From a virus, in the IMG/VR virus record IMGVR_UViG_3300024581_003238, positions 79,988 through 143,987 of that record: a stretch of DNA of 64,000 nucleotides, one strand, 5' to 3'. Numbering within the stretch: position 1 is the stretch's first letter; each line of letters opens with the position of its first letter. A model generated the notes under the pieces. That model was given only the letters and a program-made list of their open reading frames with translations. It had not been told where the DNA came from and made no database searches. A program made the position numbers and the translations under genes. Of this stretch, positions 2,929 through 6,267 are shown piece by piece.

Positions 2929-3741
2929 ATGACCAAAAGCAACAGTTTCCTAAACACCGAAGAGATAAGTTTTTACTTAAAAGACGTAAAAAAAATTCCT
3001 GTAACAACTAATCATAGACTTAAAGAAATAATAAAAGAATTAAAAAGTCCTAACATAACCGAAAAACAAAAAAGAGAATTACAACATGAGTTGGTTCTTG
3101 GAAATTTAAGGTTTGTAATTAGTGTTTCTAAACAATACTTAAACCAAGGTTTGGATCTCCCTGATTTAATTTCCGAAGGTAACATAGGTATGATTCGTGC
3201 GTCGGAGGAATTTAACCCCAATAAAAAGGTTAGATTCATTTCTTATGCTGTATGGTGGATCAGACAGGCAATAATGTCCTCACTTAATGATAACGCTCGA
3301 ACGATAAGATTACCGTCTAACATTATACAAGAATATCAAAAATCCAAAAAACAGGTATTGTCGGAAGACGATCCCGATTTTGCAGAAAAATATGAAAAAC
3401 AGGCTTCACAATTTGTTCCAAAAACCGTAAGTTTAAGTGACCATATCAATGATGAGGGCGACCAACTCATAGATATTGTTGTTAATAAAGACTCTCTTAA
3501 TCCTGAAAGTTATTTGGAAAATGAGAATGAAAGAAAAAAACACGTGAAGAGCGCACTTTCAATATTGAATGATAAGGAAAGGACTATAATTGAAAAATAT
3601 TTCGGTTTAAACGGTGTTCAGTGTAATTTGGAGGATCTTGGTGAAGAATTCGGTTGTACCAAAGAAAGAATCAGACAACTGAAAGAAAAGGCGATGAAAA
3701 AACTAAGAAATGAGAGTTTTACTTTATTAAAATATTTATAA
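2929..3741 (+). CDS. Phage-encoded sigma70-family factor (RpoD/RpoS-like)
   Basis: Region 2 motifs GNLRFVISVSKQY, DLISEGNIGMIRA and RFISYAVWWIRQAI. Region 4 HTH LEDLGEEFGCTKERIRQLKEKAMKKLR. No region 1.1. Confidence 0.92.
   Translation: MTKSNSFLNTEEISFYLKDVKKIPVTTNHRLKEIIKELKSPNITEKQKRELQHELVLGNLRFVISVSKQYLNQGLDLPDLISEGNIGMIRASEEFNPNKKVRFISYAVWWIRQAIMSSLNDNARTIRLPSNIIQEYQKSKKQVLSEDDPDFAEKYEKQASQFVPKTVSLSDHINDEGDQLIDIVVNKDSLNPESYLENENERKKHVKSALSILNDKERTIIEKYFGLNGVQCNLEDLGEEFGCTKERIRQLKEKAMKKLRNESFTLLKYL
3733..3740 (+). promoter_or_regulatory. TATTTATA motif, candidate late promoter element
   Basis: Overlaps the sigma stop codon and sits 19 nt before the ATG at 3760, the same spacing as the 1673 copy. 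Confidence 0.4.
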
Positions 3742-3759: not shown

Positions 3760-4062
3760 ATGAAGAAATTTTTAGAGAAACATTTCGTAACAATAGTTTT
3801 TGTAATCCTAATCTTTACGTTCTTTAGAGGGTGTGGTGACAGTAGAGAAATGTCATCAATCAAAAAGGAAATGAAAGAGTTAAAAGAATTCAATCAAAAC
3901 CGTACGTATACAAAAGAAGAATTAGACCTTAGATTAAAGATTGAAGGTTTAAAGAGTGAACATAGAATGATTCAGGCAACTGATAGAAAAATGTTCGATC
4001 TTAACAGACAAACTCAAATTGAAAAAGAGTTAGAGTCATTAGAAAGTCAACTTGTAAAATAA
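3760..4062 (+). CDS. Hypothetical protein with an N-terminal TM or lipobox-like segment and a coiled coil
   Basis: Hydrophobic FVTIVFVILIFTFFRGC followed by a charged heptad-like region. Confidence 0.6.
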   Translation: MKKFLEKHFVTIVFVILIFTFFRGCGDSREMSSIKKEMKELKEFNQNRTYTKEELDLRLKIEGLKSEHRMIQATDRKMFDLNRQTQIEKELESLESQLVK

Positions 4063-5358
4063 ATGGGTAATTGGTTTCAGAAGAATTTTAGAACCATTAT
4101 TTATATTGCGTTCTTAGTTCCTATTATAACTGTCGCAATCGTTTCCATATCTCACGTAACTGTATGGTATGGAATTTCCAACCCAATGTCATGGGCGTTA
4201 TATCTATCCATAGGTATTGAAATTGCTGCACTATCAGCGTTAGCGGCAATATCAGCACAGATGGGATCTAAAGTGTACGTTCCATTTGGTATTGTTACTT
4301 TAGTTCAGTTTGTTGGTAACATATTTTTCGCGTTTGAATTTATTAAAATTGATGCCGAACAATTTCTTTCATGGGTCGAGTTAACTGGTCCTATTTTAGA
4401 ATATATAGGTATAGAACAATCGGACCTACAATCACACAGAAGATTCTTAGCAATATTTGCGGGTGGAATGTTACCACTAATTTCATTATCATTCTTACAT
4501 ATGTTAGTTAAATTTAATGAAGAAACTGATAATTCGAAAACTGACGATGAGGATGGTGAAGAGACAAAAAAAGTTATAGAGGAAGAGAGTAAAATAAAAC
4601 CATCAGAAGAAGACTTAAATAAATTAGAAGATCTACTATCTAAATTTAAACCTGAAGAAAAACCAACAAAAGGTAAAACAATATTTGAATCACGAACTAA
4701 AGAATGGGACGACGAACTACCACCTGAAGCAAGAGGTTTTGAACCACCTTCAAAAGAAGAAGATGTTTTTGATGAAGAACCACCTGAGTGGTTTACTGAA
4801 CAACCTCCACTAAGTGATGAAGATGAGTGGGATGAAGATCATGAATTAGATATGGTAATGAATGATGTAATTCAAGATTTAACACCTGAAGAAATTTCAA
4901 AGATTGTAGAAGAATCTGAAAAAGAACCAACACCAACCCCAAATTATACTTTTAAGTCTTTCGATGATATTGAAAAAGAGTTAGACGAAAGTTTACTTGA
5001 AATTGATAATACGGATCAAAAACAAACAAAGAAGACCGTTGACAAATACGGTCAGTTAGATGAGTATCTTAACCAAACGAGAAGTTGGGATGATCAGGGT
5101 GCACAATTACCCGATTCAGTTGATACTGCGGAATTAGATCTTGATACGGGAATTATTTCAACACCAACACCTGATGTAAAGGAAATTGATGTGGTATTAG
5201 ACGAGTCAGATTTCATTAGTGATGTTCCTGAATTGGATATTGATGTTAAGGTCGAACCGTCACCAACGGAAACACCTAAACCTAATCCTAACTTTATAGT
5301 AGGTCAACCCAAAGAAAACTTACAGGATCCTATAGACCCTGAAAAAAAAAATCAATAG
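4063..5358 (+). CDS. Multi-pass membrane protein with a long acidic low-complexity C-terminus (short isoform)
   Basis: About four hydrophobic helices in the first ~150 aa, then an E/D/P-rich tail. Ends at an A10 run (gaaaaaaaaaatcaatag). Confidence 0.7.
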   Translation: MGNWFQKNFRTIIYIAFLVPIITVAIVSISHVTVWYGISNPMSWALYLSIGIEIAALSALAAISAQMGSKVYVPFGIVTLVQFVGNIFFAFEFIKIDAEQFLSWVELTGPILEYIGIEQSDLQSHRRFLAIFAGGMLPLISLSFLHMLVKFNEETDNSKTDDEDGEETKKVIEEESKIKPSEEDLNKLEDLLSKFKPEEKPTKGKTIFESRTKEWDDELPPEARGFEPPSKEEDVFDEEPPEWFTEQPPLSDEDEWDEDHELDMVMNDVIQDLTPEEISKIVEESEKEPTPTPNYTFKSFDDIEKELDESLLEIDNTDQKQTKKTVDKYGQLDEYLNQTRSWDDQGAQLPDSVDTAELDLDTGIISTPTPDVKEIDVVLDESDFISDVPELDIDVKVEPSPTETPKPNPNFIVGQPKENLQDPIDPEKKNQ

Positions 5359-5696
5359 ATCCAAAACCTACAGAAGTCCCAATAGTAACATCGACTTCAG
5401 TTCCTACTAATACACCATACCCAACTCAAACCCCCACCCCAACACCAACAACCAGCTCAATTCCTACATCAACACCAACAAACACACCCACGAGTACTCC
5501 AACACCTACCCCAACACCGTCGGTTAGTCCAACACCAACAAACACACCCACGAGTACACCAACACCATCACCCACTATTTTTATAGACAGTCTTTACATG
5601 GAACCCAAACCGGCACCACAAGAACCGTTGTTGAAAGTGGGATCTAAAGTAATTGTAAGAAATGTTGGAAATTCGAGACGTAGAAACAATAGATAA
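5343..5696 (+). other. -1-frame Pro/Thr-rich extension of the 4063 gene, reachable only through the A10 run
   Basis: Frame 3 is open from just after TGA (5340-5342) to TAA (5694-5696). It reads KKKSIDPKPTEVPIVTSTSVPTNTPYPTQTPTPTP...RNVGNSRRRNNR and has no start codon before the Pro/Thr tract. Confidence 0.7.
5470..5557 (+). repeat. 28-nt exact direct repeat with a 60-nt period in the Pro/Thr tract
   Basis: caacaccaacaaacacacccacgagtac at 5470-5497 and 5530-5557. The period is a multiple of 3. Confidence 0.85.
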
Positions 5697-6267
5697 AACT
5701 TCACTTAACTACGTAAAGAAGAAATACAAGAAAAAACAAATTCTTCTCTATGATACAAAAAGACGTATTGATGATTTTGTCAATAAAATTAAATATCGAC
5801 AAAATGGTCAATATGAAGATATACCACATTTCATCGTATCTAAAATGGGGGACGTATATAGTGTTTTGGATGTTGACTATTCCTCAGTTACGTTCGGTAA
5901 TAAATTATTAGATAGGAAACAAATCAAAATTGCGGTTGAAAATCTTGGGTGGTTAACTAAAAATACTATAACGGGGTATTTTAATAATTGGATTGGAGAT
6001 CCTCATAGATCTGAACCTTTTATTAGAAGTTGGAGAGACAAATTCTATTGGGATAGGTACACCGAAACTCAAATTGAGAGTGTTGTCAAGTTGTGTGAAT
6101 ACCTATGTGAGACCCATTATCTAGAAAAAAGAGTGGTTCCGAGTCACGGATACATAGAAAACATAGATAAATTTAATGGAATTGTATGTAAATCCAACTT
6201 TTCAAATATTTATACAGATATAAACCCTTCGTTTAATTTTAAAAAATTTACAAACGATGAAATTTAA
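5662..6267 (+). CDS. N-acetylmuramoyl-L-alanine amidase (Amidase_2)-like protein with degenerate Zn ligands
   Basis: KKQILLYDT, IPHFIVSKMGDVY, IAVENLG, YTETQIESVVKLCEYL and GIVCKSNF..TDINP follow the Amidase_2/PGRP layout, but the usual His ligands are missing. Confidence 0.6.
   Translation: MLEIRDVETIDKTSLNYVKKKYKKKQILLYDTKRRIDDFVNKIKYRQNGQYEDIPHFIVSKMGDVYSVLDVDYSSVTFGNKLLDRKQIKIAVENLGWLTKNTITGYFNNWIGDPHRSEPFIRSWRDKFYWDRYTETQIESVVKLCEYLCETHYLEKRVVPSHGYIENIDKFNGIVCKSNFSNIYTDINPSFNFKKFTNDEI

Follow-up and report, generated by a model that had tools for sequence, protein, structure and literature searches.

Among the closest described counterparts of the element reported here is tssM1 of Citrobacter rodentium, for which, as for tssM of Yersinia pseudotuberculosis, transcriptional slippage was shown by experiment (PMC4256274). 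RNA polymerase adds A's at the poly-A run of tssM1, mRNAs with 10–15 A's were detected, and the protein is made in two lengths, about 20% of it full length; according to the authors, both forms and their ratio are required for function (PMC4256274). We analyzed a stretch of viral DNA of 64,000 nucleotides (nt), positions 79,988 to 143,987 of IMG/VR record IMGVR_UViG_3300024581_003238 (hereafter the window), in which a phage gene for a membrane protein ends just past a run of ten A's (A10) while the −1 frame stays open from the run to the start of a downstream amidase-like gene. The likeness to tssM1 lies in a membrane-protein gene interrupted just past a poly-A run (A11 in tssM1), with no ribosomal frameshift stimulator nearby (PMC4256274). 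The differences are that tssM1 belongs to a bacterial secretion system, that no 5' hairpin was described for it, and that its mechanism was shown directly, whereas that of the phage gene is argued from comparison among relatives.

Further comparisons draw on the review PMC5009743. In Shigella spa13, slippage gives 25–30% of the product a 112-residue C-terminal extension, the end of which overlaps with where spa32 begins, and slippage strongly affects spa32 expression. The phage tail and amidase gene have the same architecture, although spa13 and spa32 lie in a type III secretion operon, with another run and unrelated proteins, and any coupling to the phage amidase is hypothetical. In an IS630-family element of Roseiflexus, slippage has a known stimulator in a stem-loop that directly adjoins the slip motif on its 5' side and forms in the nascent RNA with a terminator-like geometry, a likeness to the structure predicted at the phage site. 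However, the Roseiflexus motif is heteropolymeric (T5C5), yields a one-base deletion and depends strictly on a GC-rich stem, whereas the A homopolymer of the phage could slip unaided, needs a +1 insertion and has short, AU-rich stems. Slippage on a 9-nt homopolymer also gives two products at a set ratio from dnaX of Thermus thermophilus, but there the long form is the unslipped one and slippage truncates, which resembles three relatives described below (L014, L015, and L021) and not the window. The tail assembly chaperone G/GT is likewise a conserved phage recoding with a minor, C-terminally extended product; it differs in being ribosomal, in using varied heptamers and in belonging to another gene class. 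Reported slippage frequencies of such analogues are about 20–30% (PMC4256274, PMC5009743).

Judged by comparison of its relatives, the phage locus is a real, conserved recoding site, and we assign it to a known kind, programmed transcriptional slippage. Gain of one A in the transcript at this conserved site probably yields two isoforms, of 431 and 544 residues. The features concerned are as follows (window coordinates):

4063 to 5358, plus strand: frame-0 open reading frame (ORF) of the membrane protein, the short isoform, 431 residues, ending ...DPEKKNQ
5323 to 5341, plus strand: small predicted hairpin abutting the run, CAGG (5323–5326) paired with CCUG (5338–5341) plus two inner pairs
5342 to 5351, plus strand: A10 run, the putative recoding site, with predicted junction ...DPEKKKSIDPK...
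5343 to 5696, plus strand: −1-frame tail of KKK and a further 114 residues, with TAA at 5694–5696
5356 to 5358, plus strand: frame-0 stop TAG, 4 nt after the run; the membrane-protein ORF ends two codons past the run
5439 to 5574, plus strand: codon-periodic tandem repeat with periods of 30 and 60 nt, encoding a PTNTPTSTPTP-type linker
5662 to 6267, plus strand: Amidase_2/PGRP-fold gene, 201 residues (PF01510, E 3e-8)

An earlier note on this DNA had proposed that the A10 run switches the membrane protein between a short form and a form with a Pro/Thr-rich tail, and the layout it described was recovered in full when we re-read the sequence. Across the run, frame 0 reads GAA AAA AAA AAT CAA TAG, and the −1 frame has a TGA at 5340–5342 followed by 117 sense codons (KKK plus 114) at 5343–5693. 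No ATG, GTG, or TTG lies ahead of the Pro/Thr tract in the −1 frame, the first being the Met of LYMEP at 5598, so that, as the note had argued, this frame can be entered only at the A-run. The run is the longest homopolymer of the window. Because base composition predicts some 1.8 runs of at least A10 per 64 kilobases (kb), its significance comes from conservation in relatives and not from the A10 itself.

Relatives were taken from IMG/VR as two locus samples, one anchored on the membrane protein (L001–L080) and one on the amidase (L090–L169). Together they hold 59 distinct sites, 2 with A9, 47 with A10 and 10 with A11, and at every one the run is an uninterrupted homopolymer of at least 9 A's. 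The frame-0 stop falls 0–12 nt past the run, and the tail was in the −1 frame in all 60 loci scored for both shifted frames; the expectation that homologues would keep both an A-run and an open −1 frame was thus borne out. At A11 sites the sequence is GAA AAA AAA AAA TAA and one more A is still needed; what relatives preserve is thus how the two frames relate to each other and not one fixed number of A's. Among the amidase-anchored loci, 76 of 80 were of this slip type, 3 were read through in frame, and in 1 an ORF reaches the amidase unshifted. All 80 have an upstream ORF that ends between about 25 nt before and 35 nt after the amidase ATG.

Protein-level searches gave the same picture. A profile of the tail, run against 1.84 billion cluster representatives, matched 51 clusters, of which 47 were short stand-alone ORF calls and 4 continued in frame through the lysine run. 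The membrane protein has more than 3,000 metagenomic homologues; of its 120 best cluster representatives, 108 terminate in KK[N/K] plus 0–3 residues and a single one (P0105) continues into the tail. At the level of strains, seven contigs from at least six samples, 97–99% identical to the window, all carried A10 and the same layout. Among consensus assemblies, one difference in run length lies in another lineage, where two near-identical loci differ by one A: L089 has A10, and L088 has A11 with the two frames fused, P0105 being its product. One extra A does therefore fuse the frames, exactly as the earlier note had predicted. The core of the two-isoform proposal stands at the comparative level, with A10 in all seven assemblies of the strain and homologues that are not simple in-frame fusions.

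The tail frame is, by several sequence signatures, coding and under purifying selection. Between the run and the amidase ATG of relatives, it contains 3 stops in 2,534 codons, compared with 217 in 2,543 and 224 in 2,508 in the other two frames, and the three are confined to two lineages whose tail finishes just before the ATG. The tail differs by 14 substitutions from that of a strain 99% identical; 10 of these hit the third codon position of the tail frame (binomial p 0.004), and 8 are synonymous. Both repeat periods, 30 and 60 nt, are multiples of three, which agrees with the codon-periodic repeat reported earlier. In the predicted long isoform of 544 residues, the tail has 26 Pro and 27 Thr among 117 residues, reads ...IFIDSLYMEPKP...KVGSKVIVRNVGNSRRRNNR after the Pro/Thr stretch, includes the motif DSLYME and has the C-terminus NSRRRNNR. 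Its basic RRRNNR end and its 35-nt overlap with the next gene's start at 5662 were also as first described.

Conserved motifs of the tail in relatives include [DE]LY[WML]E, NPNQ[VI]IYDLENN in many clades, and K-x-[VI]-x-x-RNV before the amidase start. The linker differs by clade, being Pro/Thr-rich in that of the window and acidic or Asn-rich in others. A mucin-like, glycosylated linker, as had been suggested, is therefore not a conserved function of the family, given that Pro/Thr richness is confined to the window's clade. The basic tip shares its DNA with the amidase N-terminus, itself conserved (MLEI..VE..D), and is missing where the tail ends short of the ATG, so that conservation of the tip is partly a matter of dual coding. 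In eight loci (L056, L065, L095, L098, L108, L109, L120, and L141), the tail ends about 4–25 nt before the amidase ATG; these lack the RNVGN..RR tip and keep the LYWE and NPNQVIYDLE motifs, so that the basic tip is dispensable. The MLEI..VE..D terminus of the amidase is conserved even where no tail overlaps it.

The earlier note had seen no clear stimulatory hairpin at the run. This held for the downstream side, where no stimulator was found in the 60 nt after the run (mean z −0.68) and L007 was without any structure. Upstream, however, a candidate at 5323–5341 abuts the run, and its counterparts are strong in many relatives. The hairpin in the window has a predicted energy of −4.5 kcal/mol, in the top 5.4% of control positions, and in most lineages the hairpin ends 0–2 nt ahead of the first A. 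An abutting hairpin of −4 kcal/mol or below was predicted at 44 of the 59 sites vs 6.2% of the 18,990 positions that served as controls within these genes, and one of −6 kcal/mol or below at 27 of the 59 sites vs 2.1% of controls. The mean energy was −5.3 kcal/mol, as against −0.69 kcal/mol at control positions (Mann-Whitney p 1e-38). Synonymous-codon shuffling of the 11 codons before the run gave a mean of −1.3 kcal/mol, where −5.2 kcal/mol was observed (Fisher p 3e-11).

The stems vary in sequence and in the peptide that they encode: CAGG/CCUG in the window and CUUCC/GGAAG, CAUCAUC/GAUGAUG, and CAAUUAACUC/GAGUUAGUUG elsewhere. When 26 sites were aligned without gaps, RNAalifold returned no consensus structure, because the register of the stem varies from site to site. 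In its place we used the register-free energy tests above and a subset of 12 distinct sequences that share one register and had already been predicted to fold. Compensatory double changes occur at 4 of the 7 pairs in this subset, and pairing holds in 98.8% of cells, a level reached by 0 of 500 shuffles. The conserved upstream hairpin is new here, and we regard it as a candidate nascent-RNA stimulator of slippage. Its position, upstream of the run and abutting it, favors transcriptional slippage over −1 ribosomal frameshifting.

The length of the run points the same way. The RNA:DNA hybrid is put at 9–10 base pairs (bp), efficient slippage in vivo is reported for runs of 9 A or T (PMC5009743), and A runs must be longer than T runs for E. 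coli RNA polymerase (PMC6260861). Runs that are always pure and at least 9 A's long fit both the hybrid length and this reported requirement (PMC5009743, PMC6260861). The mechanism that we propose would have the default product stop just past A10, at 431 residues. In some transcripts, RNA polymerase, probably the host enzyme directed by a sigma factor that the phage encodes about 300 nt upstream, would slip on the ten A's and add one non-templated A. A nascent-RNA hairpin ending exactly at the first A would assist the slip: with the hybrid wholly rA:dT over its 9–10 bp, the hairpin would form at the upstream edge of the hybrid, in a terminator-like geometry. The A11 mRNAs would then be translated normally into the 544-residue isoform, with its variable linker, LY[WM]E-type motif, and basic tip. 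Since the long frame reaches the amidase start codon, slipped transcripts may bring ribosomes there as well.

Several points weigh against this interpretation or temper it. The support is comparative, and both run-length heterogeneity of RNA relative to DNA and the long protein are predictions. Contigs from metatranscriptomes matched 4195–4417, 4492–4674, 4941–5107, and 5470–5627 (X19) and 4554–4708 (X20), none of them across the run, and two raw DNA runs gave 0 to 3 reads, none across 5173–5468. The hairpin of the window itself is weak (synonymous-shuffle p 0.25), and at 11 of the 59 sites no hairpin abuts the run, so that an absolute dependence of slippage on the hairpin is unlikely. The subset that showed covariation was picked from sequences already predicted to fold, and the loci are related and partly redundant, so that the p-values given above overstate their independence. 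Finally, the host polymerase is only the probable transcriber of the membrane-protein gene; the 146-kb record, which amounts to some 44% of the genome, showed no gene for an RNA polymerase (PF00940, PF00562).

A translational explanation would make the 544-residue protein from the unedited A10 mRNA, either by a −1 slip on A_AAA_AAA or by sliding of the ribosome on poly(A) lysine codons. Its product would be identical, so that the comparative data cannot tell the two mechanisms apart. It also counts against slippage by the polymerase that the required heptamer (A_AAA_AAA at 5343–5349 in the window, in frame-0 phase) is in the right phase at every site, so that ribosomes may contribute to the shift. 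A heptamer would suffice for −1 frameshifting; yet heteropolymeric heptamers and runs of fewer than 9 A's, both of which −1 frameshifting would allow, occur in no lineage. No conserved hairpin or pseudoknot lies downstream, and the window genes show almost no Shine-Dalgarno usage (6 of 48). Ribosome sliding on A runs has been reported, but the structure that is conserved here is 5' of the run, where a stem-loop is reported to attenuate −1 ribosomal frameshifting (PMC5009743). We therefore hold a ribosomal slip to be unlikely.

Slippage in DNA replication could instead toggle genomes between A10 and A11, each making only the short or the long form, and the earlier note had offered such toggling as a possibility. 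A10 tracts are mutable, the near-identical pair L089 and L088 differs in just this way, and 4 of the 51 tail-bearing clusters are in-frame read-throughs; moreover, assemblies show consensus only, so low-level variation is possible. As the main mode, however, toggling does not fit seven independent assemblies of the strain that are all A10, or the 47 stand-alone vs 4 read-through calls among the 51 clusters. Of 80 loci, 76 have the out-of-frame arrangement as their consensus, the stop in A11 lineages has moved such that a shift is again required, and a conserved RNA hairpin would have no role in a DNA switch. We consider a phase-variable run highly improbable as the explanation. That the layout is a homopolymer miscall of an in-frame fusion, or the dying remnant of an unexpressed tail, is already largely refuted and scarcely credible: homopolymers are error-prone and one relative was assembled as a fusion, but the same layout recurs with A9, A10, and A11 in many studies and dozens of lineages, the tail frame stays open and bears signatures of purifying selection, and a systematic miscount would break lineages in which A10 is naturally in frame.

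In the tree of the N-terminal domain, the slip type occupies two well-supported clades, that of the window (6 rows, support 100/100) and a large one (support 99/94) to which 27 slip forms belong. The large clade also holds the three long in-frame forms, each branching on its own among the slip forms, and these three are therefore derived. The in-frame lineages keep A9/A10 runs and are without strong abutting hairpins. L014, L015, and L021 have long in-frame ORFs with two A9 or A10 runs (EEKKNLIPEPT..., ...MEEKKNFEIL...), which in L014 lie at 0-based offsets 3766 and 4045; slippage in these loci would truncate the protein rather than extend it. Short members of the family (223–264 residues) have no run, end in K-x-L-x-Y-x-x-R-[DN]-[AG] and have a stop that overlaps the amidase ATG. 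In every arrangement, some frame of the membrane gene extends to the amidase start. One of the four in-frame read-throughs found with the tail profile, P0147 (L148), joins the linker, lysine run, and tail to an N-terminal membrane domain of another kind, made up of two helices, a coiled coil, and one helix. This suggests that the C-terminal module can change its membrane anchor and yet remain beside the amidase.

The downstream gene scored 34.5 bits against PF01510, for which the curated cut-off is 26, and its ATG sits within the tail codons R-N-V. An AlphaFold model of the protein had a mean predicted local distance difference test (pLDDT) score of 83, and Foldseek matched it to phage and bacterial MurNAc-L-Ala amidases, AmpD/AmiD, and PGRPs (E 2e-5), the structures including LysC, AmpDh2, AmiE, PlyL, and PGRPs. 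Searches of PDB sequences with the single sequence and with a profile returned nothing significant. The family has an invariant Q-I-L-L-Y-D-T at what we take to be the position of the first His-containing zinc motif expected in Amidase_2, and the protein may, on its sequence, be a non-canonical or non-catalytic member. Prediction of a complex between the last 48 tail residues and the amidase scored 0.01 relative to a mark of 0.32, which gives no support for binding and does not count against it.

Four helices are predicted within the N-terminal 150 residues of the membrane protein (about 11–29, 45–63, 73–91, and 131–149), and this region is its best-conserved part, with many invariant alignment columns. 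A 282-residue acidic region with 86 Asp and Glu follows and is probably disordered. The positive-inside rule hints that both ends of the protein are cytoplasmic. No Pfam or PHROG family matched the protein, and its look-alikes in the Atlas were viral hypothetical proteins only. As for holin features, the helices and the adjacency to an amidase are present, no Pfam or PHROG holin family matched, and 431 residues far exceed the typical size of a holin.

The window has a G+C content of about 32% and carries nearly all of its genes on one strand. The parent record is 145.7 kb long, with an IMG/VR completeness rating of about 44%. Searches of cultured-phage records with blastn and tblastn found no relatives; one weak match (31.6% identity) was to an uncultured phage record. 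A Shine-Dalgarno-like sequence occurs upstream of just 6 of 48 window genes and the upstream regions are A/T-rich, which is consistent with the Bacteroidota-like host that we infer. The neighboring features are as follows:

963 to 1670: ClpP-like ORF, ending ...KKKK
between the ClpP-like gene and the sigma factor: two genes without known role, one with DUF6576
2929 to 3741: sigma-70-family factor, about 300 nt upstream of the membrane-protein gene
3760 to 4062: protein of 100 residues with an N-terminal membrane helix and a coiled coil
5426 to 5575 (3864 to 4013 in L081), minus strand: spurious 49-residue ORF, a GV-rich mirror of the Pro/Thr repeat

The protein encoded at 3760–4062 matched DivIC weakly, under the Pfam cut-off, and its stop abuts the start of the membrane-protein gene (TAA ATG); the two proteins could work together in a module for lysis or for the envelope. 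A second A-run, A9 at 1659–1667, lies directly before the stop of the ClpP-like ORF. It was considered as another recoding site and rejected, since the next gene's frame is not open before 1682 and no fusion is possible; the run is probably just a lysine tail. Gene callers left the tail region empty or filled it with the spurious minus-strand ORF.

By analogy with spa13 and spa32, slipped transcripts may couple translation of the amidase to the frequency of slippage. Going further, the hairpin and A10 could form a dosing valve for the amidase, with slippage frequency setting the ratio of amidase to membrane protein and the two isoforms, of which one has the LYWE motif and basic C-terminus and the other does not, antagonizing each other like holin and antiholin; only slipped transcripts would then carry ribosomes on to the amidase start. 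We put this forward tentatively, as a doubtful possibility.

Our literature searches, whose coverage was incomplete and cannot prove novelty, found no report of this gene family or site. A stretch of roughly 300 nt is miscalled, and a conserved isoform is consequently absent from the annotation of a large group of uncultured aquatic phages. The family also offers a natural replicated series, with many stems, three run lengths, and derived in-frame forms without the hairpin, which would help in experiments on the tuning of polymerase slippage by structure in the nascent RNA; with its terminator-like pairing of hairpin and A10 and its connection to the amidase gene, the site lends itself well to experiment. 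If the amidase start depends on the slipped frame, this would be a new example of recoding that sets the dose of a cell-wall hydrolase. Were the dosing valve to prove true, lysis control by RNA-polymerase slippage would be widespread in uncultured phages of non-Shine-Dalgarno hosts, probably Bacteroidota.

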